Positions 8,275-52,331 of a DNA stretch of 64,000 bases are shown here, piece after piece. Positions within the stretch are counted from its first letter, which is position 1, and each line of letters begins with the position of its first letter. Location of the stretch: positions 264,843-328,842 of the forward strand of contig DIWA01000026.1 of the NCBI GenBank assembly GCA_002422525.1, read 5' to 3'. Made by a program: the position numbers and the translations under genes. Under the pieces are notes generated by a model. That model was not told the DNA's origin and did not search any database. It worked only from the letters and a program-made list of their open reading frames with translations. This DNA is from Candidatus Hydrogenedentes bacterium UBA6118. GTDB lineage: Bacteria; Hydrogenedentota; Hydrogenedentia; Hydrogenedentales; SLHB01.

Positions 8275-8334
8275 TCCGAGGGGAGGGCCTGCGGCCTCGC
8301 ACGCCCTCCTCCGTCCTCACGGAACCGGCGCCTC

Positions 8335-8681
8335 CTACTCGCGCCCCGCGGCGCGTTCGGCGTCCTCCGCATACCGCTCGTACCAGGGCTTGCGCTCCGC
8401 CGCCTCCTCCGCGAGAGGGCTGTCGGGATACTCCGCCAGCAGCTCGCCCAGCACCCCCGCGGCGTCGTCGTGGCGCTGCGCAAAGCTGTAGGCCCGCGCC
8501 AGGTCGAGCATCACCTCGTCGCGCAACGCGAAGTCCGGCGCGTTGAGGTAGAGGTCCTCGAGTTCTCCCAGCGACGACTCGGTAAGACCGCCGACCGTGC
8601 AACGCTTGTGGCGCCCATAGAAGGCGTAGGCCGTGTCGGGGAACTCCGTCAGCAGTCGGCTCAGCGCGCCGCCCCGAGTCG
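8335..8681 (-). pseudogene. 3' (C-terminal) fragment of a type-1 secreted-array paralog, split by IS3 insertion
   Basis: Its DNA is ~90% identical to the 3' end of the gene at 14106-15080. It encodes ...LNAPDFALRDEVMLDLARAY...YPDSPLAEEAAERKPWYERYAEDAERAAGRE*. Homology ends exactly at the IS boundary. Confidence 0.7.
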
Positions 8682-8863
8682 TGCGCCTACCCCCAATCTT
8701 CGACCACGGATCGGCGATTTTAGGGTGGAACCTGCCGCCCTGTACGCCATGTCGTCGAGGCCCGTGAGCCGCGTGTCGGTGATGCCGTCGCGGAGTGGAG
8801 CCCGACCCCGAAGGGGCGGCCCGCAGGGCCGAGGGCGGAGCGCAGCGACGGCATCATGCGGTC

Positions 8864-9727
8864 TCATTTCCACCCCGCTCCTTGATGGAATACCTCAGCA
8901 GGGGTTCTCTTGTCCAGCGCGCTGTGTCTCCTTTCATAGTTGTAATAGTTGAACCATGCATCAAGCCCCCGGTGCAACTCATGTCCGTCGGCGTAGGACT
9001 TGGGATAGATCTCCTCATACTTCACCGACCACCACAGGCGCTCGATAAACACGTTGTCCAGAGCCCGTCCGCGACCGTCCATGCTGATCGCGATGCCTTT
9101 GTCCAGCAGCACGCGCGTGAAAGCCTGCGAAGTGAACTGCGAGCCCTGGTCCGTGTTGAAGATCTCGGGCGTGCCCCGGCTCAGCGCCCGCTCCAGGGCG
9201 ACCACGCAGAACAGGCCCTCAAGCGTGTTCGAGAGCTCCCATGCCAGCACGAAGCGACTGCGCCACTCCATGACCGCCGTCAGGTACATGAACCCATGAC
9301 GCATCGGAACGTAGGTGATGTCCGTGCTCCAGACCTGGTTCACCCGATCGATCCGCAGATCACGCAGCAAATAGGGGTAGATCACGTGTCCGGGCGCCGG
9401 CTTGCTCGTATGCGGCCCCGGCGTGATCGCCTGGAGCCCCATCCGCTGCATCAGCCGACTTACCCTCTTGCGGTTCACCGCGTGGCCCTGCTCCGCGAGC
9501 CAGTCCGTCATCCGCGGAGACCCGAACTCCGGATGGCGCATGTACTGCTCGTCGATGAGCCGCATCAGCACAAGGTTCTCTTCAGACTCCGGGGCGGGCA
9601 CGTAGTAGAAACTCGACCGAGGAACGCCTGCCAACCTGCATTGCCGCCGAACCGAGAGCCCGGCGCTGGAATCCACCCAGCCCCGGCGCGTTGAAAGCGG
9701 CAGGCTCATAGCTTTTTTTCCAGCCAC
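8864..9727 (-). CDS. IS3-family transposase OrfB (DDE/rve integrase domain)
   Basis: 287 aa with an rve-like core (...WSTDITYVPMRHGFMYLTAVMEW...FNTDQGSQFTS...ERLWWSVKYEEIY). Confidence 0.85.
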   Translation of the reverse strand: MAGKKAMSLPLSTRRGWVDSSAGLSVRRQCRLAGVPRSSFYYVPAPESEENLVLMRLIDEQYMRHPEFGSPRMTDWLAEQGHAVNRKRVSRLMQRMGLQAITPGPHTSKPAPGHVIYPYLLRDLRIDRVNQVWSTDITYVPMRHGFMYLTAVMEWRSRFVLAWELSNTLEGLFCVVALERALSRGTPEIFNTDQGSQFTSQAFTRVLLDKGIAISMDGRGRALDNVFIERLWWSVKYEEIYPKSYADGHELHRGLDAWFNYYNYERRHSALDKRTPAEVFHQGAGWK

Positions 9728-9990
9728 CGGATATCCATCTTCAACCGGCCGATCTCCTCGTAGAGCGGAGCCGTCAACTCCTCCTCGCTCTTGCCGCGCG
9801 CATCCTTGCCCGACGAGAACAACTCGGGAGCCTTCGTCACAAGCTGCTTCTTCCAGGTCGAGATCTGGTTGGGATGCACCTTGTACTCCGCCGCCAGCGC
9901 CGCCAGGGTCTTCACGCCCTTGACCGCCTCAAGCGCAACCTGAGCCTTGAACTTCTCCGTGAATGTCCGTCGTCGTCTTCCCACGTCCAT
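9706..9990 (-). CDS. IS3-family transposase OrfA (HTH); a -1 frameshift into OrfB is expected
   Basis: 94 aa with a leucine-zipper-like tail. The 22-nt overlap with orfB contains AAAAAAG. Confidence 0.8.
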   Translation of the reverse strand: MDVGRRRRTFTEKFKAQVALEAVKGVKTLAALAAEYKVHPNQISTWKKQLVTKAPELFSSGKDARGKSEEELTAPLYEEIGRLKMDIRWLEKKL

Positions 9991-10062
9991 GCGTCCTTTC
10001 CTACCAGCTCAAGGACGCAAATTCCACCTAAGCCCCTGGTCCGAAAATCGGGGGCAACCGCA

Positions 10063-10678
10063 TCGCGAACGAGTTGAGCTCGAACCCATTCGTCTTCAGC
10101 CCTTCCGTCCACAATGCCAGCGCCTCGCTCTCGCGACCTTCGGGCGCGCGCACCGTGATCTCCAGCCAGTTCGTCAGGACGCTCGGGCGCTTGCCGGCGG
10201 GCGCCTCCTGCCCGTCCGCCGGAGCCACCTGCACCTCCACCCGAAACCTGTGCACCCCTGGACGGTCCAGCACAAATGCGCTGGTCCCGCCGTACGCCGT
10301 CAGGAGGTCGCGTACCGTGTACGCCCCGCCCGGCGCCAGCTCGATGCGGTTGGCGCGGGAGTAAGATCCAGAGGACGCGCGGACGTAGCGCGCGTGCTCC
10401 TCGCTCCCCGGTCGCTGTTGGTACACCGTCGTGGAGCCGTCGCCAATCTCCCAGGGCGCGTTCACCCGCAGCGGATCCTGCGTGACGTTCGTCAGCGTCA
10501 GCTCCAACACCAGCGGTTCGCAGCACACATACGTCTGCTTCGGCGACCCGATGGTGTAGGCCACGCTTCCGGAAGCCGCGCCCGCCTCGCCGAACGCGGC
10601 CCCGCCCGCCAGCAACACGAGCCCCAGTGCAGCCGCGATGAACCACCCGCCGCCGTTTCTGCGTCTCTCTGCGTCCAT
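10063..10678 (-). pseudogene. 5' (N-terminal) fragment of the same type-1 paralog disrupted by IS3
   Basis: Signal peptide MDAERRRNGGGWFIAAALGLVLLAGGAAFG plus the SPKQTYVCCEPLVLELTLTNV domain, ~85% identical to the paralog at 14106-15080. The track ORF reads through into the IS to 10028. Confidence 0.7.
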
Positions 10679-10753
10679 GTCCGCCTCCCTGCCCCCAGTT
10701 CGTGCGTCTCCCCGTCACGGCGCCTCGCTGAGCATCTCCCTGATCCTCCCTCC

Positions 10754-11812
10754 TCACGGAACCGGCGGGTCTTCCTCGCCGCGGAGCAGGCGTTCGACGT
10801 ACTCCGTGTGGCGGCTGTCGGGGAAGCGCTCGCGCATCGCGTCGCAGATCTCCTGCGCCTCCGCCTCCATGTGCGCGCTCAGGTAGGCCTGCGTCAACTG
10901 CACCATCGCGCTGCTCAACAGCGGGAAGTCCGCCGCGTCCGCATCCCGCACGAACGCCTCGAACATCTCGACCCGCGACTGCTGCGCCTGCGCGATCCGC
11001 TGGCCCATCTCCGGGATCGGCGCTCGAGACGCTTCCAGAACGCTCCGGTGCGCTTCGCCGGCAACCCAGATCATCCGTTGATAGAGCCCGAACACCGTGT
11101 CTCCGAACTCCGTCGCCAGTCGCTCCCGCGCCTTCCGCGCCCTCTCCCGAACCGCAGGATCCCGGCTCCGGCCGCCGCGCAATACATCGCCGAACAGCGC
11201 ACTGGCGTCGCGATCCCGGCCTTGGGCCGCGACGACCTTGACCTCCAGCACGTTCGACCGAACCAACCTGCCGCAGTGCGCATCCGCCGTGTTCTCGGGG
11301 TCGGTCACGCAAGGCAGGTACGCGCACATGACCTCGTACACGCCCGTGCGAGTGAACGGGATTCCTGCCCCGGGACCCTGCGACCGGCCCACGTACTCCA
11401 GCAGCTTGCCGCCCTTCAGGGACGCGCCGGGCTCCACCAGCGCGATCTTCTCAGAGAAGTCATCGAAGAACTCCAACGGTCTCACGTCGTAGCCGTCGCC
11501 GTCCGGCTCGGTGATATGCACGTCCACGTTAGGTTCCAGGATCCATACGCTCTCCTCACCGGCATACGTGATCCGCCAGTCCAGGGCGAGCGGCTCGTTC
11601 GGCAGAAGGGTTGTTTTCGGCGAGGATACCGTCAGCGTGAACGGCAGATCCGGCGCCGCTTCGTCGTCGCCCATGCCGCTCCCGGTGTGCGCAAAGGGCG
11701 CGTCGCGCTCCACCGCATCACTAGCGAGGGACGAAACGGCCAGCACGGCGCAGAGCACCGTGCCGAACAGTCTGCGGCGACTGATGTTCCTGTCGCATCG
11801 CACCAGCATCAT
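10754..11812 (-). CDS. secreted paralog, type 2 (SPKTT beta-sandwich + FPDS helical tail family)
   Basis: Probable start at MMLVRCDRNISRRRLFGTVLCAVLAVSSLA (signal peptide); the track ORF starts with GTG at 11953. C-terminus ...EAFVRDADAADFPLLSSAM...RERFPDSRHTEYVERLLRGEEDPPVP. Paralogous to 16191-17243 and 17315-18376. Confidence 0.65.
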   Translation of the reverse strand: MMLVRCDRNISRRRLFGTVLCAVLAVSSLASDAVERDAPFAHTGSGMGDDEAAPDLPFTLTVSSPKTTLLPNEPLALDWRITYAGEESVWILEPNVDVHITEPDGDGYDVRPLEFFDDFSEKIALVEPGASLKGGKLLEYVGRSQGPGAGIPFTRTGVYEVMCAYLPCVTDPENTADAHCGRLVRSNVLEVKVVAAQGRDRDASALFGDVLRGGRSRDPAVRERARKARERLATEFGDTVFGLYQRMIWVAGEAHRSVLEASRAPIPEMGQRIAQAQQSRVEMFEAFVRDADAADFPLLSSAMVQLTQAYLSAHMEAEAQEICDAMRERFPDSRHTEYVERLLRGEEDPPVP

Positions 11813-11865: not shown

Positions 11866-13800
11866 CTAGTACGTGAAGTAGAATGCATTGCCTCGGATAT
11901 GGGCCTTGCATAGGTCGCAGAACGTTCCGGCTACGCCACTGCGCATCAGGCACACGTCTGCGGGATCTGGATGGTCTGCAAGGCCAAAGAAGTGGCCGAC
12001 CTCGTGCGCTGCGACGCGATCCGTCGTGAGCGCAAGGTCCTCGGAGATGCTCTCCACAAAGACAGCAGCGACAGGTGCTTCATCGTGGTGCAATGATGCG
12101 CCTCCCAAGACTCGCTCCTCGTCACATCCTGGGAAGCCCCCTTCAGGGTTGGGATCCCCGTCCCGCGCGTAACATGGGTCATAGCACACAACAACCTGCC
12201 CCGCCCAGTATCTGGCATCTGCCGGACTTCCGCAGTACTGCCTCAGGAACTCCGGCATGGCGTAGTTGTCGTCGCCACGGTAGACGTAGTCATAGTGACT
12301 GCTAGGGTCCCATGGGGCATACGCATGCACAGGCATATTCCGTCTGAACGGCACATCCGACGTGTCTTCCCCGGTATCGAACCTGGCCTCAATGTACGCC
12401 TCCTGAAGCGAGGCGACGATGGTGTCCGTCGGCGCGGGCGGAAGGGCGCCCCCCGGATCCGTGTCCTCCGTGTCTATCCGGTACGGGTCGCCCGACGACG
12501 CATTGGCGGTGATGTCAGGCGGCGTGCCGTGGAGCGTGAAGGCCGTGTCTGCCGAGTTCTGCCAAACGACATAGCGCCCTGGATCGAAGTCGGACCTGTT
12601 CGGATCGACAACCGCTCCGATGAGCTGATCGCAGCGGTAGGGCGTGACAAGCCACTCCGAGTGCGTCGGCCCCCAGTCCGCCGTGTCGTCCTCCAGGTAG
12701 CCCGAGCCCGTGTGGTGACTCGACAGAGCGGTGCTGTTCCCGGTAACGACGCCGAAAACCTCGCTGGGCGAAGGCGCCCCCATCGCGTCGCGTTCTATGT
12801 GCAGCGATCGCCACACGGTCAGCATCTCGGTCATGGCGCCGACGGGCGGCGTGAGCCCGTAGTCGGCCGAACCCTGCGAACCCAGCCCCGTCGAGTCGTT
12901 GATGCAAGCCGCGGTCACGCGGTAGTTGTCGCCCGGATTGAGGCTCACTACAAGCACTGCCTCTGCCACCCCGTTCGCGTCGGTGCTGGCGGTCACTGTT
13001 GTGCTGGCAGGTTCGCCCGCCCAGCCGCCAAGGCCGCGGTTGTCCGGACCGGTGACCCCCCCATTGGGATCGACCGGGGCGGTGGTCGACGACGGGTCGT
13101 CGACGTCCCAGACGCGAAAGTAGACCGTGATCCCGGCGATCGGCGGTTCGACTGTCGCCTTCACGCTCACGCGGTCCCTCCGACTCGGGTAGGCGTCGTT
13201 GTAGGTCAGTTTGTCTGGAAAGATGCGCTTGCTGCCGTTGTTGTTGGGACAGTCGTCGAGGTCCCGGTTGGTCGCATGGTGTTTCTGCCACACGACCTCC
13301 GTCACCGCGGCGAGCGCCAGTTGAACGCCGATCTGCCCCGAGGGATCGTCGGCGACAAGCCCCGGATCGTCGATGGTGCAGTGGGCCGCGTAGAGCCCCG
13401 GATCGAGATCCGCGGGCAGGGTCCACTTGCGCACCCAGTACCGATCCGTCGCGGCTGTCGTTCCGCCGTCCGTCGCCCACCCGGTGAAGGACACATAGTC
13501 GCCGTCCACCACGGGCACGGTCAGCATATAGTCGGTATCACTCATCGCGCCATACAGCCACAGCGTCTGCTGGAAAGCCCTCAGCATGAGCCGATGGACA
13601 CCGCCCACGCTCGGCACTTCATCCCCCGCGCCGTTCTGCACCTGGAGCTCGGTGTCCGCGATGTACGGAAACGGGAAGTACATCTGCGCATCGGTGACGC
13701 GCGGCGTCAGCCACAAGAGCGATGTCGCGAACACGCCCGTCGCGATCGCGGCCCACCGCGCCGCACGCCGTGCTCCTCCATTCAGCCTGGTTCTCTGCAT
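11866..13800 (-). CDS. secreted 644-aa protein with a snapalysin-like zinc-metalloprotease motif HEVGHFFGLADH near the C-terminus
   Basis: Signal peptide MQRTRLNGGARRAARWAAIATGVFATSLLWLTP. Long beta-rich body. HExxHxxGxxD(H) matches the M7/snapalysin consensus HETGHVLGLPDHY. It is embedded in the paralog array and preceded by a conserved promoter/leader. Confidence 0.7.
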   Translation of the reverse strand: MQRTRLNGGARRAARWAAIATGVFATSLLWLTPRVTDAQMYFPFPYIADTELQVQNGAGDEVPSVGGVHRLMLRAFQQTLWLYGAMSDTDYMLTVPVVDGDYVSFTGWATDGGTTAATDRYWVRKWTLPADLDPGLYAAHCTIDDPGLVADDPSGQIGVQLALAAVTEVVWQKHHATNRDLDDCPNNNGSKRIFPDKLTYNDAYPSRRDRVSVKATVEPPIAGITVYFRVWDVDDPSSTTAPVDPNGGVTGPDNRGLGGWAGEPASTTVTASTDANGVAEAVLVVSLNPGDNYRVTAACINDSTGLGSQGSADYGLTPPVGAMTEMLTVWRSLHIERDAMGAPSPSEVFGVVTGNSTALSSHHTGSGYLEDDTADWGPTHSEWLVTPYRCDQLIGAVVDPNRSDFDPGRYVVWQNSADTAFTLHGTPPDITANASSGDPYRIDTEDTDPGGALPPAPTDTIVASLQEAYIEARFDTGEDTSDVPFRRNMPVHAYAPWDPSSHYDYVYRGDDNYAMPEFLRQYCGSPADARYWAGQVVVCYDPCYARDGDPNPEGGFPGCDEERVLGGASLHHDEAPVAAVFVESISEDLALTTDRVAAHEVGHFFGLADHPDPADVCLMRSGVAGTFCDLCKAHIRGNAFYFTY

Positions 13801-13894
13801 GTCTCACGTCCTCCGTGGGAACCGCCGTTACAGAACATGCATGCCGTCTCCCGCCTCAGCGGGACGGCGAATGGGCTGAACTCCGGTCCGGCAA

Positions 13895-14011
13895 TCACCT
13901 CCCTCCAATCGGGAGGAACGCCGGGAAGAGACACGACACAGACGGGAAGGCCGAGCGACGGATGCGTCGCCCGAAGGGGGGATAGGCTGCTGTCAGTCCA
14001 GAAGGTCTCAT
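13895..14011 (-). pseudogene. relic 5' end of a type-2 paralog (38-codon ORF MRPSGLTAAYPPFGRRIRRS...), now the 5' leader of the metalloprotease gene
   Basis: Nearly identical to the first codons and 5' UTR of the gene at 17315-18376, then diverges and stops. Confidence 0.4.
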
Positions 14012-14057
14012 CGCACGGCGTCCCAGCCTCGCGCTGTATACCTCGGCCTATGCATCG

Positions 14058-14086
14058 ACTCTACACCGTATTGGATGGGCTGTCAA
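14058..14086 (-). promoter_or_regulatory. sigma70-type promoter TTGACA-17 bp-TAGAGT with an upstream A-tract (copy 2)
   Basis: On the minus strand: aaaaaaggtcTTGACAgcccatccaatacggtgTAGAGTcg. It is near-identical to the promoter at 18423-18451 and is an extreme AT-rich outlier in a ~70% GC region. Confidence 0.5.
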
Positions 14087-14105
14087 GACCTTTTTTCGGC
14101 GCCTC

Positions 14106-15080
14106 CTACTCGCCCTCCGCGGCCTCGCGCGCGGCGGCGCGTTCGGCATCCTCCGCATACCGCTCGTACCAGGGCTTGCGCTCCGCCGCCTCCTCCGCGA
14201 GAGGGCTGTCCGGATACTCCGCCAGCAACTCGCCCAACACCGCCGCGCCATCGCTGTAGCGTTGCGCGGATCTGTACGCCCGCGCCAGGTCGAGCATCAC
14301 CTCGTCGCGCAACGCGAAGTCCGGCGCGTTGAGGTAGAGGTCCTCGAGTTCTCCCAGCGACGACTCGGTAAGACCGCCGACCGTGCAACGTTTGTGGCGC
14401 CCATGGAAGGCGTAGACCGTATCGGGGAACTCGGTCAACAGCCGGCTCAGGGCGCCGCCCCGAGTCGCGAACGAGTTAAGGTCGAACCCATTCGTCTTCA
14501 GTCCTTCCGTCCACAATGCCAGCGCCTCGCTCTCGCGACCTTCGGGCGCGCGCACCGTGACCTCCAGCCAGTTCGTCAGAACGCTCGGGCGCTTGCCGGA
14601 GGGCGCGTCCTGCCCGTCCGCCGGCGCAAGCTGCGCCTCCACCCGAAACCTGTGCACGCCTGGACGGTCCAGCACAAACGCGCTGGTCCCGCCGTACGCC
14701 GTCAGGAGGTCGCGGACCGTGTACGCCCCGCCCGGCGCCAGCTCGACAATGTTGGGGGAGAGGTAATCGCTGAAGATCGCGGGGACGTAGCGTGCCTGTT
14801 CCTCGCTCCCCGGTCGCTGCTGGTACACCGTCGTGCGGCCGTCGCCAATGTCCCAGGGCGCGTTCACCTGCACCGGATCCTGCGTGACGTTCGTCAGCGT
14901 CAGCTCCAACACCAGCGGTTCGCAGCACACATACGTCTGCTTCGGCGACCTGATGGTGTAGGCCACGCTTCCGGAAGCCGCGCCCGCGTCGCCGAACGCG
15001 GCCCCGCCCGCCAGCAACACAAGCCCCGCCGCGGCCGCGATGAGCCACCCGCCGCCGTTCCTGTGTCTCTTCGTATTCAT
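14106..15080 (-). CDS. secreted paralog, type 1 (SPKQT beta-sandwich + YPDS helical tail), intact copy
   Basis: Signal peptide MNTKRHRNGGGWLIAAAAGLVLLAGGAAFG; GGGAGG RBS; tail LAEYPDSPLAEEAAERKPWYERYAEDAERAAAREAAEGE. Confidence 0.7.
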   Translation of the reverse strand: MNTKRHRNGGGWLIAAAAGLVLLAGGAAFGDAGAASGSVAYTIRSPKQTYVCCEPLVLELTLTNVTQDPVQVNAPWDIGDGRTTVYQQRPGSEEQARYVPAIFSDYLSPNIVELAPGGAYTVRDLLTAYGGTSAFVLDRPGVHRFRVEAQLAPADGQDAPSGKRPSVLTNWLEVTVRAPEGRESEALALWTEGLKTNGFDLNSFATRGGALSRLLTEFPDTVYAFHGRHKRCTVGGLTESSLGELEDLYLNAPDFALRDEVMLDLARAYRSAQRYSDGAAVLGELLAEYPDSPLAEEAAERKPWYERYAEDAERAAAREAAEGE

Positions 15081-15116
15081 GTCTACCTCCCTGCCCCCAG
15101 TTCGTGCCTTCCCCCG

Positions 15117-16115
15117 TCACCGCGCCTCGCGCGCGGCGGCGCGTTCGGCGTCCTCCGCATACCGCTCGTACCAGGGCTTGCGCTCCGCCGCCTCCTCCGC
15201 GAGAGGGCTGTCCGGATACTCGGCCAGCAACTCGCCCAGCACCGCCGCGCCATCGCTGTAGCGTTGCGCGGATCTGTACGCCCGCGCCAGGTCGAGCATC
15301 ACCTCGTCGCGCAACGCGAAGTCCGGCGCGTTGAGGTAGAGGTCCTCGAGGATCGCCTGCCGGCACGCCTCCTGCGAGCGCCCCTGCAACGTCGACTCGG
15401 GCAACGCGCCCCGCTTGGCCAGCGCGGACCGCGCGTGCCGCCCGTAGACCGTGTCCGGGTGATCCGCGACCAGCGCCGCGACCGCCTCATCGGACTGATC
15501 CAGCGATCCCAGGTCGAACGCAGCCCGCTGGAGCGCCGCCAGCCAGAGCGCCAAGGCCTCCGCGTCGCGGTCCGCCGGGGCGCCGACCGTCACCTGGACC
15601 TCGTTGCTCACGACGGCCGGCCAGCCCGACGCCGGCTTGCCGCCATCGCCGGAGTCCACCGTGAACCGCGCCCGGAACCGGTACGCGCCCGGCAACGCGA
15701 GAACGAACGGGTTGGCGCCTGCTCGGTCATCGGTCTCCATCGTCGCAAGGATCCCCCGCAGGCGGATCGCGCCGTCCGCGGCAAGCGGCGCCCGGAGCGG
15801 GACCATGAGGCTGAGGGTCGACGGCGGCTGGTACACGCGCCATTCCGCCTCGCCCGGACCGCACACCTCGATCATGAGGGGCGCCTGCCCGACCTGCGGC
15901 GGCAACGTCACCGTGAGCGCCCCCTCCGCGTCGGTCTCAAGCGCAACATCCAGCACGATGGGCTCACCGACGAGACACTGCGCGTCGCCGCTATGCCGGA
16001 GCGTCACGCGGATCGCGTCCGACGCGCACCACGCGGCCCCGCCCGCCAGCAACACAAGCCCCACTGCGGCCGCGATGAACCCGCCGCCGCCATTCCTGCG
16101 TCTCTTCGTGTTCAT
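15117..16115 (-). CDS. secreted paralog, type 1 variant (divergent middle, same signal peptide and tail)
   Basis: Probable start MNTKRRRNGGGGFIAAAVGLVLLAGGAAWCAS with the conserved GGGAGGCAGACATG leader. The C-terminal ~75 aa are near-identical to 14106-15080. Confidence 0.65.
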   Translation of the reverse strand: MNTKRRRNGGGGFIAAAVGLVLLAGGAAWCASDAIRVTLRHSGDAQCLVGEPIVLDVALETDAEGALTVTLPPQVGQAPLMIEVCGPGEAEWRVYQPPSTLSLMVPLRAPLAADGAIRLRGILATMETDDRAGANPFVLALPGAYRFRARFTVDSGDGGKPASGWPAVVSNEVQVTVGAPADRDAEALALWLAALQRAAFDLGSLDQSDEAVAALVADHPDTVYGRHARSALAKRGALPESTLQGRSQEACRQAILEDLYLNAPDFALRDEVMLDLARAYRSAQRYSDGAAVLGELLAEYPDSPLAEEAAERKPWYERYAEDAERAAAREAR

Positions 16116-16190
16116 GTCTGCCTCCCTGCCCCCAGTTCGTGCCTTCCCCCCGTCACGGCGTCTCCCGCGCATCTCCCTGATCCTCCGTCC

Positions 16191-17243
16191 TCACGGAACC
16201 GGCGGGTCCTCCTCGCCGCGAAGCAGGCGCTCGACATGCTCCGTGTGGCGGCTGTCCGGGAAGCGCTTGCGCATGGTCTCGCAGATCTCCTGCGCCTCCG
16301 CCTCCATGTGCGCGCTCAGGTAGGCCTGCGCCAACTGCTGCATCGCGCTGTCCAGCAGCGGGAAATCCGCCGCCTCCGCATCCCGCACGAACGCCTCGAA
16401 CATCTCGACCCGCGACTGCTGCGCCTGCGCCCGCGTATGCTCCACGTCCCGCGTGTCCGCATACCCGGCCGCGTGCACGCCCCAGCGCCCGGCCACGGCG
16501 ATGCGCGGCAGTCTCTCGTACAGCCCGAACACCGTGTCGCCGAACTCCGTCGCCAGTCGCTCCGCGGCCGCCGCGGCCTCCTCACGGGCCGCTTCCTTGG
16601 GGCTATAGGTCCCGAGCAGCACCGTCCGGTACAGCGCGCCCGCCTCGGCGTCGCGTCCCTTGGCCGGGTTCACTGTCACTGTGAGTACATTCGACCGGAC
16701 CAGCTTGCCCCGCCGCGACCCCGTGGCGCGATCCGGATCGGTCACCAAAGGGCCGAAGGCGCAGCGCACCTCGTACACGCCCGGTCGAGAGAACGGCACG
16801 ACCACAGGGGGGACGCCCCGCCGCGCAGCCGTCTGCAACAGCATGCCGCTCGCATGGACGTACCCCGGCTCGACCTGAACAGGAGGAGGCTGCGAGGTCA
16901 TGAAATGCGTCGTTTCCCGCAAGTTGTAGCCGGTTCCGCCCGGCTCGGTGATGTGCACCATCACCTCCGGCTTCCTGATCCAGATGGACTCGGAACCTGT
17001 GTAGGAAAGCCGCCAGTCCAGAACCAGCGGCTCGTTCGGCAGAAGCGTCGTCTTCGGCGACGATATCGTCAGCGTGAACGGGAGATCCGGCGCATTCTCC
17101 TCGTCCTTCGCGTACCTCAGCCACTGCTCGAAAGGGGCGTCCAGGTCGAGCCCGGCCGCCGCCGCAACCGGACAGACCAAGGCCGAGAGCACGACGATGC
17201 TCGCGACCAACCCTGCGTATCTGACTCTGCTCTCATCCGACAT
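16191..17243 (-). CDS. secreted paralog, type 2
   Basis: Signal peptide MSDESRVRYAGLVASIVVLSALVCPVAAAAG; SSPKTTLLPNEPLVLDW domain. The 3' ~230 nt are near-identical to the 3' end of 17315-18376. Confidence 0.7.
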   Translation of the reverse strand: MSDESRVRYAGLVASIVVLSALVCPVAAAAGLDLDAPFEQWLRYAKDEENAPDLPFTLTISSPKTTLLPNEPLVLDWRLSYTGSESIWIRKPEVMVHITEPGGTGYNLRETTHFMTSQPPPVQVEPGYVHASGMLLQTAARRGVPPVVVPFSRPGVYEVRCAFGPLVTDPDRATGSRRGKLVRSNVLTVTVNPAKGRDAEAGALYRTVLLGTYSPKEAAREEAAAAAERLATEFGDTVFGLYERLPRIAVAGRWGVHAAGYADTRDVEHTRAQAQQSRVEMFEAFVRDAEAADFPLLDSAMQQLAQAYLSAHMEAEAQEICETMRKRFPDSRHTEHVERLLRGEEDPPVP

Positions 17244-17314
17244 ACCGCATCCCTCCCGATCGAACAGACCCCATCGCGCCGCCGGAGTTCGCCCCTACTC
17301 GCCCTCCTCCGTGC

Positions 17315-18376
17315 TCACGGAACCGGCGGGTCCTCCTCGCCGCGGAGCAGGCGCTCGACGTACTCCGTGTGGCGGCTGTCCGGGAAGCGCTTACGCATGG
17401 TCTCGCAGATCTCCCGCGCCTCCGCCTCCATGTGCGCGCTCAGGTAGGCCTGCGCCAACTGCTGCATCGCGCTGTCCAGCAGCGGGAAATCCGCCGCCTC
17501 CGCATCCCGCACGAACGCCTCGAACATCTCCACCCGCGACTGCTGGGCTCTGCGCAGATCGCCCTGTCCGCCCCGGCTTGCCTCCCAGACGCCGTGCTCC
17601 GACGCCGCTGCAACCCGCGACTGCCGTTGGTAGAGCCCAAACACCGTGTCGCCGAACTCCGCAACCAACCGCTCCGCGGCGGACACTGACTCGTCGCGAC
17701 TGACCTGGCCGTCTCCATAGACACCGAACATGACCGTTCGGTACAACGCGCCCGCCTCGGCGTCGCGTCCCTTAGCGGGCTTCACGGTCACCGTCAGTAC
17801 GTTCGAGTGCACCGGCCTGCCGCCAACGGTCGCTTGGCGCGTCTCCGGGTCAGCCAACGCAGGCGCGAGCCTGCACTGAACCTGGTAGACGCCGGGCCGC
17901 GCGAAGGGTATGACCATCCGCGTCGCCGAGGGTTTGGAGACGATCTGCAGCAGCTTGCCGCCGGTCCGTACGCAGCCCGGTTCCATCGCCTCGACCACGG
18001 CGCGGTCGAAGTGCACATGCATCCACCGCTTCACGTCGTAGCCGTCGCCATCCGGCTCCGTGATGTGCACCTTCACGTCCGGCGCAACGACCCAGATCGT
18101 CTCATTCCCGGCATACGTGATCCGCCAGTCCAGGGCGAGCGGCTCGTTCGGCAGAAGGGTCGTCTTCGGCGACGAAATCGTCAGCGTCAACGACAGGTCC
18201 GGCGCCGCTTCGTCGTCGCCCATGCCGCTCCCGGTGTGCGCAGACGGCGCGTCGCGCTCCGCCGCGGTCGCAACCGGACAGAGCAATGCGAAGAGGAGAA
18301 CGGCGAGATGCACAGGCGAGCGACGGATGCGTCGCCCGGAGGGGGGATAGGCTGCTGTCATTCCTGAAGGTCTCAT
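17315..18376 (-). CDS. secreted paralog, type 2 (first gene of the array, directly after the conserved promoter)
   Basis: N-terminus MRPSGMTAAYPPSGRRIRRSPVHLAVLLFALLCPVATAA. Same domain organisation and the FPDSRHTEYVERLLRGEEDPPVP tail. Confidence 0.7.
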   Translation of the reverse strand: MRPSGMTAAYPPSGRRIRRSPVHLAVLLFALLCPVATAAERDAPSAHTGSGMGDDEAAPDLSLTLTISSPKTTLLPNEPLALDWRITYAGNETIWVVAPDVKVHITEPDGDGYDVKRWMHVHFDRAVVEAMEPGCVRTGGKLLQIVSKPSATRMVIPFARPGVYQVQCRLAPALADPETRQATVGGRPVHSNVLTVTVKPAKGRDAEAGALYRTVMFGVYGDGQVSRDESVSAAERLVAEFGDTVFGLYQRQSRVAAASEHGVWEASRGGQGDLRRAQQSRVEMFEAFVRDAEAADFPLLDSAMQQLAQAYLSAHMEAEAREICETMRKRFPDSRHTEYVERLLRGEEDPPVP

Positions 18377-18422
18377 CGCACGGCGTCCCTGCCTCGCGCT
18401 GGATACCTCGGCCTACGCGTCC

Positions 18423-18451
18423 ACTCTATGCCGTCTGCGCGCGGCTGTCAA
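18423..18451 (-). promoter_or_regulatory. sigma70-type promoter TTGACA-17 bp-TAGAGT with an upstream A-tract (copy 1), ~40-nt 5' UTR to ATG 18376
   Basis: On the minus strand: ggtaaaaaggtcTTGACAgccgcgcgcagacggcaTAGAGTggacg. It is duplicated at 14058-14086. Confidence 0.55.
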
Positions 18452-18569
18452 GACCTTTTTACCGGGCTCAGGCGCCCCGCAGACGGCAAAAGGCCCCGAC
18501 GCGGGGCGTCAGGGCCTCTGCAATGCGCCGCCGCTCCGTCGCGGAGGGCGGGATGTCTGCGTTCGCGGA

Positions 18570-19904
18570 CTAGATCTTCCAGCCTTCCCGATTGTCGCGG
18601 GTGAGCAGCGCGTTCGCCTCGGGGACGTTCGTCACCTGCATGTTGGCGGCGTCCCACTCGATGCGCTGGCCGGTGCGGACCGCGATGTTGCCCAGCAGCA
18701 CGATCTCGCTGAACGGACCGGAGTACTCGAAGTTCGAGCACGCGGCCGGTCCGCCCTTGCACGCGCGGAACCAATCCTCGTAGGGGCTGTTGTCGGGCAC
18801 GCGCTCGATGTACGGCTCGGGGACCACCACCGCGGCATTCTCCGATTCCGGATGCAGCCGCGGGTTGCCGCCATACGTGCCGCAGGACATGTAGCCCTTG
18901 GAGCCGATGAACAGCGTGCCGTTGTCGCCGTCGCCGAGCTTCTCCTCGGCCGGAATCCCCTCGGGACGCTCGGGCAGCTCGCCGCCGTCGTACCAGTAGA
19001 ACGTCAACGCGGGCCAGGTGCGGCCGTCGGCCTCGCGCTCGGGGAAGTCGTACCGGATGACCGACTTCACGGGCCCGCTCTGGGCGGTGTTGCCCTCCTG
19101 GCGAACGCACTCGACGGAGGTCGGCGCGCCGAGGTGCAGCGCCCAGTAGGCCGGGTCCATGATGTGGCAGGCCATGTCGCCGAGGGCGCCGCAGCCGAAG
19201 TCCCACCAGCCGCGCCAGTTGAACGGCGCATAGCCGGCGTTGTAGTCGCGATAGGGCGCCGGGCCGAGCCAGAGGTCCCAGTCCATGTGCGCGGGAACTT
19301 CCTCCGCCGGGAGCGGGTCGACGAGGCCCTGGGGCCAGATCGGCCGATCGGTCCAGCAGTGCACCTCGGTGACGTCGCCCAGCGCGCCGCTCCAGATCAC
19401 CTCGCAGAGCTGCCGCACGCCTTCGTCCGCGTGGCCCTGGTTGCCCATCTGCGTGGCCACGCCGTACCGCCGCGCCGCTTCAGTGAGCATGCGCGCCTCG
19501 GCGACGGTGTGCGTGAGGGGCTTCTGCACGTAGACGTGGATGCCTTGCTCCATCGCCGCCATCGCCGCGACGGCGTGCGTGTGGTCCGGCGTCGAGATCG
19601 TCACCGCGTCGATGTTCTCCTTCTCGAGCATCACGCGGAAGTCCTTGTAGTAGGTCGCGTTCGGGAAGTTGCGGATCGATTCGGCCGCGCGCACGTCGTC
19701 AACGTCGCACAACGCCACGACGTTGTGTCCGCGACAGGCCCAGATATCGCTGGCGCCTTTGCCGCCGACGCCGATGCCCGCGATGTTGAGCTTCTCGTTC
19801 GGCGAAGGCGCCGCCTTCGCGATGCGCGATCCGGTGGCGCACCCGGCCGCAGCCATCGCCGCGCCCATCAGGAACGTCCGTCGTGTGAACCGTCTGGATT
19901 TCAT
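18570..19904 (-). CDS. Gfo/Idh/MocA-family oxidoreductase with a Tat signal (GH109-like)
   Basis: Tat motif RRTFLMGAAMAAAG; Rossmann IAGIGVGGKG; VYVQKPLTHT. Confidence 0.85.
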   Translation of the reverse strand: MKSRRFTRRTFLMGAAMAAAGCATGSRIAKAAPSPNEKLNIAGIGVGGKGASDIWACRGHNVVALCDVDDVRAAESIRNFPNATYYKDFRVMLEKENIDAVTISTPDHTHAVAAMAAMEQGIHVYVQKPLTHTVAEARMLTEAARRYGVATQMGNQGHADEGVRQLCEVIWSGALGDVTEVHCWTDRPIWPQGLVDPLPAEEVPAHMDWDLWLGPAPYRDYNAGYAPFNWRGWWDFGCGALGDMACHIMDPAYWALHLGAPTSVECVRQEGNTAQSGPVKSVIRYDFPEREADGRTWPALTFYWYDGGELPERPEGIPAEEKLGDGDNGTLFIGSKGYMSCGTYGGNPRLHPESENAAVVVPEPYIERVPDNSPYEDWFRACKGGPAACSNFEYSGPFSEIVLLGNIAVRTGQRIEWDAANMQVTNVPEANALLTRDNREGWKI

Positions 19905-20042
19905 GTCTGCCCCTCATGCCAAGTCTGTTGTCGTGAAAACCACGGGTCGGCGCCACGCCGCCCGGCGTGGACAACACTCATACCCGGACAGCATACTCCA
20001 GGCTTGAAAACCTGTCAAAACGGACTGAGCTTCACGGGATCC

Positions 20043-25611: not shown

Positions 25612-28600
25612 TCAGTCGCGCCGATTGCGTCTACGGAGGGCCGCGACGCCCGCCCACACGACCATCGCCGCAGTCGCGGACAGCCCGACCGGCGCAAGCG
25701 GCAGCGAAGGCGCAGGCACGTCGTCCATCCGGAACGCCGCCTCGACGGTGATATCCGCCGTCACATCCACATCCCGGCGCGGATTCTGCGTCGAACCGTC
25801 CGACCATTGCTCGAACGTGTAGCCGACGTCCGCGTCGGCGCTGACTTCTTCGCCGTCCTCGCCATGCTCGACGGTCTGCTGAGACGGGCCGACGATCTCG
25901 CCCCCGACCCCCGCGGTGTAGGTCAGCGTGTAGGTCTTTTTCCGGAACTCGGCCGCGACCGTGATATCGCCCACCACGTTCACGTCCTGACGCGGGTTCG
26001 CCTGCGAGCCGTCCGACCACTGCACGAACTCATACCCATCGTCCGTAGTCACGCCCACCGGCGCCCCGTCCTCGCCATGCTCGACGGTCTGCGGCGACAG
26101 GCCGTCGATCGAACCGCCGACGCCCGCCGTGTAGGTCAGCGTGTAGGTCTTCTTCACGAACTGCGCCTGCACGCTGATGTCGCCGATCACGTTCACGTCC
26201 TGTCGCGGGTTCGCCTGCGAGCCGTCCGACCACTGGTCGAACGCATACCCGTCGTCCGGCGTCACGCCCACCGGCGCCCCGTCCTCGCCGTGCTCGACCG
26301 TCTGCGGCGACGGGCCGGCGATCTCGCCCCCGACGCCCGCCGTATAGGTCAGCGTGTAGGTCTTCCTCACGAACTGCGCCTCGACGTTGATATCCGCAGT
26401 CACGTTCAGATCCTGCCGCGGGTTCGCCTGCGAGCCGTCCGACCATTGGTCGAACGCGTAGCCGTCGTCCGGAACGGCGCTGACCTCTTCCCCGTCCTCG
26501 CCATAGTCGACGGTCTGCGGCGACGGGCCAGCGATCGAGCCTCCGACCCCCGCCGTATACGTGAGCTGGACTTGCGTACGTCTCGACGCGGGCGGTCCGG
26601 GCGTCGTCTCGACGTCATCGTCATTGCGCGCCACCACCGAGAAGACGTACTCCGTGGCCCCGGTCAGGCCGCTCACGACGACCGTGTCCCACACCGGAAC
26701 CGACCGCCACACGGCGACCGCGCCCAACGACCCGTCGCCCTGCACCCACTGCGACGTGGTCACGCATCGGATTGCATACTCCGTGCCCGCCGGGTTGCCG
26801 TCGGCCGAGTCGATCGCCACGGGGATCGTCGTGCGGGTCGGCGCCAGCGGGAACAGCGGCGCGAGCGGCGTCCCGGCGAGCGTGTACACCGACACCGGCG
26901 ACGTCTGGGGGCTCTCGCCGATGCCGTTGAAAGCGCTGATCTGACAAGTGTACATCGTATTGGGGAGCAGTCCGGTCTGCGTCCACTCCTCCACGTCGGG
27001 TCCCGTGTCATACGTTACTGTTCCTGGCGCCGTAGCGCCCGGCCCGGCGTACACGTTGAAGCCCAGCTCATCCGCCGCGGCGTCGTACCACGTCCACGTA
27101 GCTTGATCCGACAGGACGTCCTTCCATCCAGGATTGGTCGGCGCGGCGGGCGCGGTCCCGTACGAGACAACTCCAGTCCACAGCTCGCTGGTCTCGGTCA
27201 TCGATGCGCCCGGTATAGACGGAGGGAACGGTCCATAGGACTGCGCCATCTCAAAGCCGTCCCCTGGACTTCCGGGCGATCGGCTCGGCACGAAGGCGTG
27301 CGTGTCCGCCTGCCACGCGAACAGGTAGTCGCCGCTGTCCAGCCAGACCGAGGACGGCGTCCCGTCCACGACGGGGACCGTCACCCAGTGGTTCTCGGCG
27401 GTGTTGGACACGGACCCGCTCTCCCAGACAAGCGTCGGGGCCGCGCCGGACGTGTCGTACAGCCCCACGCGCACCGGACCCGCAGCGGTGTGCGAGTACA
27501 ACGCTACGCTCTGGAGCGCGCCGGACTCCGGCATCGTCAGCGGGGAGCCTTTGACATGCCCCGCCTGTGAGTTCAGCCCCACCTTGACCACCGTTCCAGG
27601 GCTCGTCACCGTGCCGAAGTAGCCGTAGCCGTGGCTCCCGTCAACCGCGCCGCAGTAGAGCAGCTCCTCGCCTGGATTCAGGGTCACGCTGTCAACGACC
27701 AAAGGCGGGTCGCCGCCGGCGCCGCCAGACACCTCCACCACCGTTGCCGGGTTGCTGAAGACCCCGTAGAAGAGGCTGCCGTTCACCGGGTAGTCGGAAC
27801 CGCAGGAAATCGACTGGCCGGGATCAAACGTGACGGCTCCCACGCGCGACGGCGGATCGCTCCCCGCGCCCAGATCCACCTTCACCACGATCCCCGGAGA
27901 TGTATACGTTCCAAAGTAGCCGAGGCCGTTTGGCGCGTCGAGCGCGGCGGTCTGGAGCATGTCCTCTCCCGGATTGAACGTCACCGCCCCAACGCGGGAC
28001 GGCGGATCGCTTCCCGCCCCGGGATCCACTTTCACCACCACACCGGGACTGGTCATGCAGCCGAAGTACGCGTGGCCGCCGACGGGATCGAACCCCGAGC
28101 ACAACAGATCATTCTCACCCGCGTTCAACGTCGTCGACCCCAGGCGCGCGGGCGGGTCGCTCCCCACGCCGAGATCGACCTTCACCACCGTGCCTGGACT
28201 CGTTCGCGTTCCGAACAAGGCGTACCCGTTGGCGGGATCGATCACAGCGCTCGATATACTATTCTCCCCGGGGTTCAACGTCAGCGCGCCGACGCGCGTC
28301 GGCGGGTCGTTCCCGGCCCCAAGGTCCACCTTCACGATCGAACCGGGCGACGTGTCCGTGCCGAAATAGGCGTATCCGTTGGCCACATCGATCACACCGC
28401 TGCCGATGCCGTCCTCACCGGGGTTCAGGGTCAACCCGCCGACGCGCGTCGGCGGGTCGTCTCCCGTCCCAAGATCGACTTTCACCACCACCCCGGGCGA
28501 AGTGCTCCCGCCGAAATACCCATACCCATTAACCGGGTCGACTACCACCGTGGTCAACCAGTTCTCGCCGGTGTTCAGGCCGGTGACATCCGTGCGGGCG

Positions 28601-29136
28601 AGTTGCCCGTTGACGTAGTTCGTGTCGCCTACAGCATCATTCCCGGCGATCGGGTCGCTGAACCGCAACGAACGGTCCGTGTACGTGCGACCCGCGCGAT
28701 CCGTCACGGTGATCGCGACGCGGTACCAGATCTCCTCGAGGCCGACCGCCGTCCATTCCGCCTGCCACAGACCGACCTCCGCGCCGTCCCGTACGCTCTT
28801 CGACGTCAAGGGTAGAATCGCAACGGGGGCCGTCTTCCGTGCCGCCCCCGACACGTCGTCGGGCCGGGATAACGTGTCCTCTCGCTCGATTCGCGCCTCA
28901 ACGGACGCCACGCCGGCCTTGGCCGTGACCGCCGCCTGGATGGTCGCCCGTTCCCCGTTCTTCAAGGAGGGCGCCGACAGGGTCGGCAAGATGTGTATCG
29001 TCCCGTCTCCGCTGCCGGGCAGTTCCCCCGTGAACGCCATCCGATGTGGCGTCTCGCCGTGCGCGAGAACGCCTCCCATCACCACCGCTAGAACCAACAG
29101 AAGCGCAGCACGCCGCACCACATCTCGTCTACACAT
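25612..29136 (-). CDS. large secreted PEP-CTERM protein with ~7 tandem 50-aa YFGTxTSPGxVVKVDLGAGSDPP repeats, an FN3-like region and 4 Listeria-Bacteroides (Flg_new) repeats
   Basis: Signal peptide MCRRDVVRRAALLLVLAVVMGGVLAHG. Four repeats ~KKTYTLTYTAGVGGxIxGxSPQTVEHGEDGxPVxVxPDDGYAFDQWSDGS. C-terminus VPAPSLPLAPVGLSATAAMVVWAGVAALRRRNRRD. Confidence 0.75.
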   Translation of the reverse strand: MCRRDVVRRAALLLVLAVVMGGVLAHGETPHRMAFTGELPGSGDGTIHILPTLSAPSLKNGERATIQAAVTAKAGVASVEARIEREDTLSRPDDVSGAARKTAPVAILPLTSKSVRDGAEVGLWQAEWTAVGLEEIWYRVAITVTDRAGRTYTDRSLRFSDPIAGNDAVGDTNYVNGQLARTDVTGLNTGENWLTTVVVDPVNGYGYFGGSTSPGVVVKVDLGTGDDPPTRVGGLTLNPGEDGIGSGVIDVANGYAYFGTDTSPGSIVKVDLGAGNDPPTRVGALTLNPGENSISSAVIDPANGYALFGTRTSPGTVVKVDLGVGSDPPARLGSTTLNAGENDLLCSGFDPVGGHAYFGCMTSPGVVVKVDPGAGSDPPSRVGAVTFNPGEDMLQTAALDAPNGLGYFGTYTSPGIVVKVDLGAGSDPPSRVGAVTFDPGQSISCGSDYPVNGSLFYGVFSNPATVVEVSGGAGGDPPLVVDSVTLNPGEELLYCGAVDGSHGYGYFGTVTSPGTVVKVGLNSQAGHVKGSPLTMPESGALQSVALYSHTAAGPVRVGLYDTSGAAPTLVWESGSVSNTAENHWVTVPVVDGTPSSVWLDSGDYLFAWQADTHAFVPSRSPGSPGDGFEMAQSYGPFPPSIPGASMTETSELWTGVVSYGTAPAAPTNPGWKDVLSDQATWTWYDAAADELGFNVYAGPGATAPGTVTYDTGPDVEEWTQTGLLPNTMYTCQISAFNGIGESPQTSPVSVYTLAGTPLAPLFPLAPTRTTIPVAIDSADGNPAGTEYAIRCVTTSQWVQGDGSLGAVAVWRSVPVWDTVVVSGLTGATEYVFSVVARNDDDVETTPGPPASRRTQVQLTYTAGVGGSIAGPSPQTVDYGEDGEEVSAVPDDGYAFDQWSDGSQANPRQDLNVTADINVEAQFVRKTYTLTYTAGVGGEIAGPSPQTVEHGEDGAPVGVTPDDGYAFDQWSDGSQANPRQDVNVIGDISVQAQFVKKTYTLTYTAGVGGSIDGLSPQTVEHGEDGAPVGVTTDDGYEFVQWSDGSQANPRQDVNVVGDITVAAEFRKKTYTLTYTAGVGGEIVGPSQQTVEHGEDGEEVSADADVGYTFEQWSDGSTQNPRRDVDVTADITVEAAFRMDDVPAPSLPLAPVGLSATAAMVVWAGVAALRRRNRRD

Positions 29137-51767: not shown

Positions 51768-51810
51768 GCGCGCGAGTATACGGAAACCCGTAGAGACGAT
51801 CCACGAACGG

Positions 51811-51927
51811 CCCTGCCCCGCGTCCCATGCCGGTTACCCGTAGGGGCGATTCACGAATCGCCCAGCCCCGCGTCCCCCCGATCACCGTAGGGGCGATTCA
51901 CGAATCGCCCCATTGACGAATCGCCCC
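51811..51927. repeat. two ~48-bp tandem repeats, each containing a perfect 20-22-bp palindrome GGGGCGATTCACGAATCGCCCC (plus a degenerate third copy)
   Basis: Read directly from the sequence. Palindrome centres lie ~84 and ~131 bp upstream of the PAP2-GT83 ATG and just 3' of ssrA. No T-run follows. Confidence 0.5.
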
Positions 51928-51974: not shown

Positions 51975-52331
51975 TGGTGGAGGCGGCGGGAATCGAACCC
52001 GCGTCCGAAGGTGCATCGACGTAAGCGTCTACGTGTGTAGCCCGTCCTTTAGGATTCGCCGCCTTGGACCGCGTCGGGCTCGCTGACCAAGGCCGCTAGG
52101 CGGAGGACGTACTCTCCACCGACGGCTCCGCCGTCCCTCGGCTTCGAGGCCTGCTGTCGACGCCTTAGCCCCCTAGCAGGCGGTCAGGGGTAAGACGGGA
52201 GGCCTAAGTTAGGCCGCCATTGCCAAAGGTTCGTTGGCAGTTGTGAAATGATCGGCTTTTTACGAGGCCAGCCGACCAACCTCGACACGCAACTCACGCT
52301 TCATCACCCCCGTCGAAACCTTGTCGCCCCC
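51975..52331 (-). ncRNA. ssrA: tmRNA (transfer-messenger RNA)
   Basis: 5' GGGGGCGACAAGGTTTCGACGGGGG and 3' GGGTTCGATTCCCGCCGCCTCCACCA. Internal tag ORF GCC AAC GAA CCT TTG GCA ATG GCG GCC TAA encodes ANEPLAMAA. Confidence 0.8.

Follow-up and report, generated by a model that had tools for sequence, protein, structure and literature searches.

A predicted sigma70-type promoter within a duplicated 144-nt cassette ahead of a variable secreted-protein gene cluster in an uncultured bacterium

The minus-strand site at 18451-18423 of the 64,000-nucleotide stretch of DNA analyzed here (the window) is very probably a functional promoter of the ordinary sigma70 type, judging by its sequence and context. 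An earlier note had described TTGACA-17-TAGAGT with an upstream A-tract on this strand, ahead of the first gene of an array; rereading of the sequence confirmed the coordinates. Assignment of the site as the promoter of the array is well supported by its position, by the footprint left in a duplicate of the site, by a census of the window, and by conservation in four other metagenome contigs. The duplicate, at 14086-14058, and a block of ~100 nt past the -10 element that the two copies share, ATG included, are new relative to the earlier note. We assign a probability of roughly 0.8 to the reading as a whole, in which the site (P1) would be an RpoD-type promoter that drives the array and belongs to a cassette whose second copy carries an internal promoter (P2), the copies recombining with each other.

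Position and composition of the P1 site

P1 reads ggtAAAAAggtcTTGACAgccgcgcgcagacggcaTAGAGTggacg on the minus strand, in the wider context ggtAAAAAggtcTTGACAgccgcgcgcagacggcaTAGAGTggacgcgtagg (Table 1). It shares the strand of the array and sits in the 193-nt gap between the stop codon of an oxidoreductase gene (18570) and the ATG at 18376, which is the first in-frame ATG of a 353-codon open reading frame (ORF) and lies 46 nt past the P1 -10 hexamer and 40 nt past the predicted start at 18416. The features of a sigma70 promoter are present at P1: hexamers that include A2 and T6, a spacer within 16-18 bp, and an intergenic position facing a gene. The spacer is 17 bp in both window copies and in all four copies from other samples. 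P1 lacks an extended -10 TG, and no rpoD gene was identified within the window.

A tract of five A's (18460-18456) lies 5' of the P1 -35 hexamer. The consensus for the proximal subsite of the UP element, AAAAAARNR, is that of E. coli. Numbered from TTGACA, AAAAAGG at site 1 and AAAAAAGG at site 2 match 7/9 and 8/9 positions of this consensus, which may not be that of the host. The flank directly upstream of the A-tract varies even among copies with the same (type-A) spacer (cctgagcccggt versus tccgcgtcggcg), and the upstream edge of the functional unit is therefore likely to be the A-tract itself. On the other side, a C-purine-T triplet is centered 7 nt past the -10 hexamer in all six copies considered below, though three of the six discriminator positions vary. 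A Y-R-Y "start" element centered 7 bp past the -10 was the start site in 93% of the variants of an E. coli library (PMC12641261), and the match to this element leads us to predict transcription starts at G18416 for P1 and A14051 for P2.

Table 1. Features of the P1 region and the downstream gene cluster (window coordinates)
Feature	Coordinates	Strand	Description
Terminator-like hairpin	18486..18517	-	AGGCCCTGACGC-CCC-GCGTCGGGGCCT, then TTTG; 3' of the Gfo/Idh/MocA oxidoreductase gene (18570-19904)
Inverted repeat, upstream arm	18478..18488	-	TGCCGTCTGCG; 11 bp, perfect; just past the terminator-like hairpin
Cassette copy 1	18317..18460	-	UP-like tract, -35, spacer, -10, 5'UTR, ATG, 20 signal-peptide codons
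UP-like tract	18452..18460	-	AAAAAGGTC; abuts the -35 upstream; invariant in six copies
-35 hexamer	18451-18446	-	TTGACA; 6/6 consensus positions; invariant in six copies
P1 spacer, type A	18429..18445	-	GCCGCGCGCAGACGGCA; 17 nt; 8/17 positions differ from the type-B spacer
Inverted repeat, downstream arm	18439-18429	-	CGCAGACGGCA; 11 bases of the type-A spacer
-10 hexamer	18428-18423	-	TAGAGT; 4/6 consensus positions, T1, A2 and T6 kept; invariant in six copies
Discriminator and predicted start triplet	18415..18422	-	GGACGC; triplet C18417-G18416-T18415; predicted start G18416
Predicted 5'UTR	18377..18416	-	40 nt; Shine-Dalgarno-like GAGG 18395-18392 and AGGGA 18390-18386
First array gene	17315..18376	-	353 aa; signal peptide MRPSGMTAAYPPSGRRIRRS-PVHLAVLLFALLCPVATAA, beta-sandwich, then TPR-like helical domain
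Array gene 2	16191-17243	-	Paralogue of gene 1
Array gene 3	15117-16115/16172	-	Paralogue of gene 1
Array gene 4	14106-15080	-	Paralogue of gene 1
Cassette copy 2	13952..14095	-	P2: -35 TTGACA 14086-14081, -10 TAGAGT 14063-14058, predicted start A14051, ATG 14011
Upstream ORF	13895..14011	-	38 codons, MRPSGLTAAYPPFGRRIRRSAFPSVSCLFPAFLPIGGR*; opened by the copy-2 cassette ATG
644-aa secreted protein gene	11866..13800	-	After P2; HEVGHFFGLAD zinc-binding motif near the C-terminus; metzincin/snapalysin-like
Further paralogues	8300..11812	-	Past the 644-aa gene; 10754-11812 intact; second one split, 10028-10678 (N-terminal) and ~8300-8640 (C-terminal)

The site had also been described as an AT island, a description that the base composition does not bear out. 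The 29 nt are 62.1% GC against 67.8% for the window; owing to a spacer of 82% GC, they fall only to the 31st percentile among all stretches of that length. With the A-tract included (43 nt), the value falls to 58.1%, the 11th percentile, and nearby coding windows reach the same local minimum (57.5%). The accompanying judgment that the site was very unlikely to have arisen by chance stands in part. The exact pattern with at most one mismatch was found twice where 0.08 occurrences were expected per window; a lone site with at least 10/12 consensus positions would be unremarkable in 64 kb, and it is the context that decides.

That context comes from a census of both strands of the whole 64-kb window, with a crude gene map corrected by means of gene calls publicly available for this organism. 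Four sites matched at least 10/12 consensus positions (29267-29238, 20018-19990, 18451-18423, and 14086-14058, all with a perfect TTGACA) compared with 0.49 expected per 64 kb, and none of 100 first-order Markov shuffles reached four such sites, their maximum being three. All four are intergenic, in a window that is 20% non-coding, and face the start of a same-strand gene 47-258 nt away; 7/9 of the sites with at least 9/12 matches are likewise intergenic and gene-facing. Intergenic and coding DNA have the same GC content (0.677 versus 0.678), so the census is not explained by AT-rich intergenic DNA or another artefact of composition. The location and orientation of the four best matches suggest that the organism uses canonical -35/-10 promoters, P1 among them. 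The region upstream of the tmRNA gene, which failed as an internal control, counts against this conclusion, with only a weak match (TTGGCG-18-CATACT). At the site upstream of the oxidoreductase gene (20018-19990), both hexamers are kept in another strain while the spacer and flanks have changed.

Several features near these sites were observed in passing. The 138-nt gap at 19905-20042, between the oxidoreductase gene and a gene for a PQQ/beta-propeller-like protein, holds a divergent promoter pair overlapping back to back, TTGACA-17-TATGCT on the minus strand and TGGACA-18-CATACT on the plus strand, of which the minus-strand hexamers are conserved in contig L008. The gene at 25612-29136 (-) encodes a 1174-aa fn3/Flg_new repeat protein and has its own site, TTGACA-18-AATACT, at 29267-29238 with an AT-rich upstream region; it contains two internal tandem-repeat arrays, with 213-nt units at 25640-26566 and ~150-nt units at 27671-28498. 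The tmRNA gene itself lies at 51975-52331 (-) (Rfam RF00023, 176.5 bits), with two tandem 46-nt repeats, 83% identical, just downstream at 51781-51876.

The duplicated cassette and the genes that it precedes

P1 forms the 5' end of a 144-nt direct repeat with only two copies in the window (nhmmer E=5e-48). The second copy lies 4365 nt downstream of the first, and the pair brackets four paralogous genes. Because the core is identical in both, the gene cluster appears to have two promoters. The spacer of P2, designated type B, reads GCCCATCCAATACGGTG. Between the copies there are no changes in AAAAAGGTC (0/9), TTGACA (0/6), or TAGAGT (0/6), compared with 8/17 in the spacer, 3/7 in the next 7 nt (the discriminator and predicted +1), and 5/99 in the leader that follows. 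The elements expected to contact RNA polymerase (A-tract/GGTC, -35, and -10) therefore differ at 0/21 positions and the spacer plus discriminator at 11/24 (Fisher p=2.8e-4), a conservation beyond that of non-contact positions, at shallow depth and with the spacer change possibly due in part to a single event. If the arm of an inverted repeat that lies within the spacer is counted as one templated mutation, the footprint becomes 4/12 versus 0/21 (hand-computed Fisher p ~0.012), which is weaker and points in the same direction. We rejected the possibility that the block is the terminus of a mobile element with an outward-facing promoter: it lacks both terminal inverted repeats and target duplications, and its end falls inside an ORF.

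The 20 codons of the cassette specify MRPSGMTAAYPPSGRRIRRS, the positively charged beginning of a signal peptide, which at site 1 continues as a hydrophobic core and then an Ala-rich end, and the N-terminus of the first array protein aligns with the signal peptides of its paralogues. AGGGA stands 9 nt ahead of the ATG at 18376. The public gene call (L002 9021-9929, equal to window 17315-18223) starts 51 codons later, at Met52, and gives a 302-aa protein that omits the signal peptide; in contig L008, the cassette ATG is called as a gene start, in frame with a different paralogue. The longer form of the first array gene, beginning at 18376, is probably the correct one.

An AlphaFold2 model of the first array protein has a mean pLDDT of 80, with residues 1-55 of low confidence or disordered, strands within residues 63-198, and helices at residues 203-345. 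A Foldseek search of this model against the PDB returned only generic Ig/FnIII/MG/CARDB beta-sandwich matches (TM 0.2-0.27). The Pfam and NCBIfam collections gave no match to the protein, and sub-threshold TPR matches appeared on other array members only. The family is small at close range, with only five clusters, and a sensitive profile search found ~300 unannotated distant relatives of the array proteins.

The array genes are separated by gaps of 71 nt (genes 1 and 2), 18 nt (genes 2 and 3, or 75 nt if gene 3 begins at its annotated start, 16115), and 36 nt (genes 3 and 4), and no promoter- or terminator-like site was found in these gaps. Cassette copy 2 starts 11 nt past the stop codon of the fourth gene (14106-14108). 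A terminator scan found none between that gene and P2, so the transcription unit probably continues past the array. The 38-codon ORF opened by the copy-2 ATG ends, with the residues GGAGGGAGGTGA, ~95 nt ahead of the 644-aa gene and inside its predicted 5'UTR of ~250 nt. It is intact in three strains, including those of contigs L006 and L007, and every substitution in its second half alters an amino acid; it may be the decayed remnant of a signal peptide. The 644-aa protein has no Pfam match and a weak NCBIfam match to snapalysin over residues 593-629 (E=0.0013, far under the curated cutoff).

The cluster is hypervariable. Between strains, the first array gene varies at the level of the paralogue, and the 644-aa gene is a mosaic across contigs L005, L006, and L007: its first ~1 kb is 96-100% identical at the nucleotide level, and large stretches of the rest (in some strains the 3' half, in others the last ~600-700 nt) are ~45-65% identical and essentially unalignable. 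We considered whether the site-2 leader is exceptionally conserved, given that the protein in L007 is 61% identical, and rejected this, since the first ~1 kb of the gene is equally conserved and only the 3' half diverges. Further downstream, an IS3-family insertion of ~1.38 kb (~8640-10030) splits an array paralogue; the repeat offsets on its two sides (5786 versus 4402) differ by 1384 bp, and it carries transposase genes at 8864-9727 and 9724-10008 (-), with rve and HTH_21 domains in the former.

If P1 works as E. coli promoters do, the C-terminal domain of the alpha subunit may contact the A-tract, sigma region 4 would bind TTGACA, and sigma region 2 would melt the DNA at TAGAGT. Transcription would then start at G18416 and yield an mRNA with a 40-nt 5'UTR, whose first cistron encodes a secreted protein with a beta-sandwich and a TPR-like domain and is followed by those of three paralogues. 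P2 would serve as an internal booster promoter for the metzincin-like 644-aa gene and the further paralogues beyond it, and the two cassettes, as direct repeats, would recombine in the region past the -10 hexamer.

Copies in other metagenomes and alternative explanations

Six copies of the cassette, from five samples (two in the window and four on other contigs), all keep AAAAAGGTCTTGACAGCC and TAGAGT. An exact-match scan for the leader core found nothing in the reference-genome collection, and the same pattern yielded one extra copy, L009, in the metagenome collection; contigs L001, L003, and L004 carry array-internal genes without the promoter and are uninformative. In L008, the oxidoreductase gene is followed by a type-A promoter and then by a paralogue different from that in the window, in frame with the cassette ATG. 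L006 has the oxidoreductase gene, a type-A promoter, and directly the 644-aa gene; L009 has the oxidoreductase gene and a type-A promoter; and in L007 a paralogue precedes a type-B promoter and a homologue of the 644-aa gene.

Types A and B differ by nine fixed positions, eight in the spacer and one at the first base of the discriminator. Over 78 leader positions, L009 (type A) and L007 (type B) differ at one, and the two type-B copies differ at six. This pattern suggests that exchange between cassettes falls downstream of the -10 hexamer and that the spacer side does not exchange. That the UP-like tract, -35, and -10 are identical in both types despite lying on the spacer side is the strongest evidence that selection acts on them. 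Recombination between direct-repeat cassettes would account for the fusion of different genes to the same cassette in different strains. The arrangement in L006 fits a crossover between the repeats that deleted the four bracketed genes, and fits equally a state that preceded the duplication.

The depth of these comparisons is shallow, the oxidoreductase gene being 92-99% identical at the nucleotide level across strains. Relative to the three strains that carry it, its third codon positions are 87-92% identical and its first and second positions 97-98%. The 44-nt promoter core is 95.5-97.7% identical to those strains, with 1-2/44 changes, all past the -10 (in the discriminator and predicted +1). 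With strains this close, and with site 2 a duplicate of site 1, the six copies amount to less independent evidence than their number suggests. The host is uncultured, and the contigs come from metagenomes of hydrocarbon-degrading methanogenic enrichments. Its asparaginyl-tRNA synthetase is 77-78% identical to those of Planctomycetota and Sumerlaeota metagenome-assembled genomes, the closest relatives that carry a name. The nearest oxidoreductases in reference genomes are only 50-61% identical and come from mixed phyla, so there is no deeper synteny to footprint.

The resemblance to a promoter could in principle be a chance match or an artefact of recent duplication, the hexamers being the same because the duplication is recent and the spacer having changed in one multi-base event; the array would then be transcribed from elsewhere, for example by read-through from the oxidoreductase promoter at 20018-19990. 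Consistent with this, the leader divergence between types A and B is no greater than that between strains, and the type-A spacer arm matches the reverse complement of nearby sequence exactly, as template switching predicts. Read-through would have to pass the terminator-like hairpin, whose 12-nt arms (18491-18502 and 18506-18517) are 92% complementary around a 3-nt loop and run into TTTTG if the last T of the stem is included. With a run of only four T's it fell under the T-run threshold of our terminator scan; L008, L006, and L009 retain the hairpin with a weaker T-run. We predict that it divides P1 from the upstream gene and counted it in favor of the promoter. We consider an artefact improbable, since types A and B differ at four fixed positions beyond the repeat arm and at none of the 21 contact positions, the boundary of the block lies exactly at the A-tract, the best consensus matches of the window are all at the 5' ends of genes, and the C-purine-T triplet is held at +7 while the discriminator varies.

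The remaining alternatives accept P1 as real or shift the emphasis to the RNA. The inverted repeat brackets the -35 hexamer, with arms 38 nt apart and one of them inside the spacer, which leaves room for regulation of P1. It might be the site of a regulator, which would argue against the constitutive transcription that the earlier note proposed, or the trace of a template switch. If TGCCGTCTGCG and CGCAGACGGCA are operator half-sites, a repressor or activator would act at P1 and not at P2. Only 7/1000 Markov shuffles reached or exceeded an inverted repeat of this length with one arm at that position; the repeat is kept at 11 bp in L008 and L009 and at 9 bp in L006 and is absent from both type-B copies, and conservation of the ~100-nt leader would also fit regulation. 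The arms, however, are 49 bp apart from center to center, a distance atypical of dimer operators, and there is no adjacent regulator gene. Among strains this closely related, conservation of the repeat carries no weight, and the neighboring terminator palindrome or template switching could have produced it as a by-product. Regulation of this kind is thus possible but doubtful. It is very unlikely that the conserved ~100 nt past the -10 is instead a cis-regulatory RNA, such as a riboswitch or attenuator-like leader, that matters more than the promoter. The 95% identity of type-A and type-B copies over 99 nt and an invariant 9-bp hairpin (GGGCGACGC/GCGUCGCUC) ~40 nt into the ORF would fit such an RNA. 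The leader, however, had no match in Rfam, either at the gathering threshold across the whole window or at E values up to 10 across 13700-18600, where only chance matches (COG3860 RNA and SNORA77) appeared. It folded no better than shuffled sequences (z of +0.15 and -0.23), and 0/29 pairs predicted from an alignment of five copies showed a compensatory change. The region also stays in frame with two different paralogues as a 5'UTR and signal-peptide codons, and exchange between the cassettes accounts for its high identity. By these tests the leader is not a structured RNA and reads as a 5'UTR followed by signal-peptide codons. We therefore retain the interpretation of P1 as an ordinary promoter within a recombining cassette.

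Comparison with known systems

As a promoter, P1 is of a kind already known and matters little beyond annotation; what the analysis adds is the second copy, the structure of the cassette, the predicted starts, and the evidence of recombination between cassettes. The analysis also defines the probable transcription unit and what is probably the true start codon of the first array gene. Through unequal recombination between its direct-repeat copies, the duplicated cassette would offer a concrete way for a strain-variable cluster of secreted-protein genes to gain and lose genes.

The cassette resembles the expression sites of variable surface-protein systems in that one promoter, leader, and signal-peptide start is joined to three different genes across strains, the downstream genes of the cluster are hypervariable, and leaders exchange between copies. 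Unlike those systems, the cluster has no identified recombinase, invertible segment, or silent cassettes, and programmed switching is unsupported; ordinary unequal homologous recombination between direct repeats explains the pattern equally well. The cassette could still be a portable module for expression and secretion, whose exchange changes which member of the hypervariable family (or the metzincin-like gene) adjoins the oxidoreductase gene at the expressed position. The three strains with three genes, the one strain without the four bracketed genes, and the leader variants shared across types fit this idea, which we regard as a long shot; if true, an uncultured Planctomycetota-like bacterium would be varying its repertoire of secreted proteins through recombination.

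P2 resembles internal operon promoters and segmental promoter duplications in its identical core, its co-directional cluster, the lack of an intervening terminator, and its origin in a duplicated block. It differs from them in that the unit is a precise 144-nt cassette of promoter, 5'UTR, start codon, and signal-peptide codons and not a whole gene, and in that the copy-2 ATG opens just a 38-codon upstream ORF before an unrelated gene.

Promoters recognized by sigma70 (RpoD/group 1) through -35 and -10 hexamers with a proximal UP element were defined in E. coli, rrnB P1 being one example. P1 departs from their consensus in its -10 hexamer, in the lack of an extended -10 TG, and in its GC-rich spacer and discriminator. 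Its host belongs to an uncultured high-GC lineage, so that recognition by the primary sigma factor, like the start site and strength, is predicted with a consensus that is that of E. coli and may not be the host's; the quality of the hexamers predicts good binding of RNA polymerase only by this analogy. P1 nevertheless shares with the E. coli promoters TTGACA, the preferred 17-nt spacer, TAnnnT, an A-tract at ~-45 to -40 that resembles AAAAAARNR, and a Y-R-Y triplet 7 nt past the -10 (PMC12641261). It thereby extends the canonical TTGACA-17-TAnnnT architecture, with A-tract and Y-R-Y triplet, to an uncultured high-GC lineage without a close reference genome.
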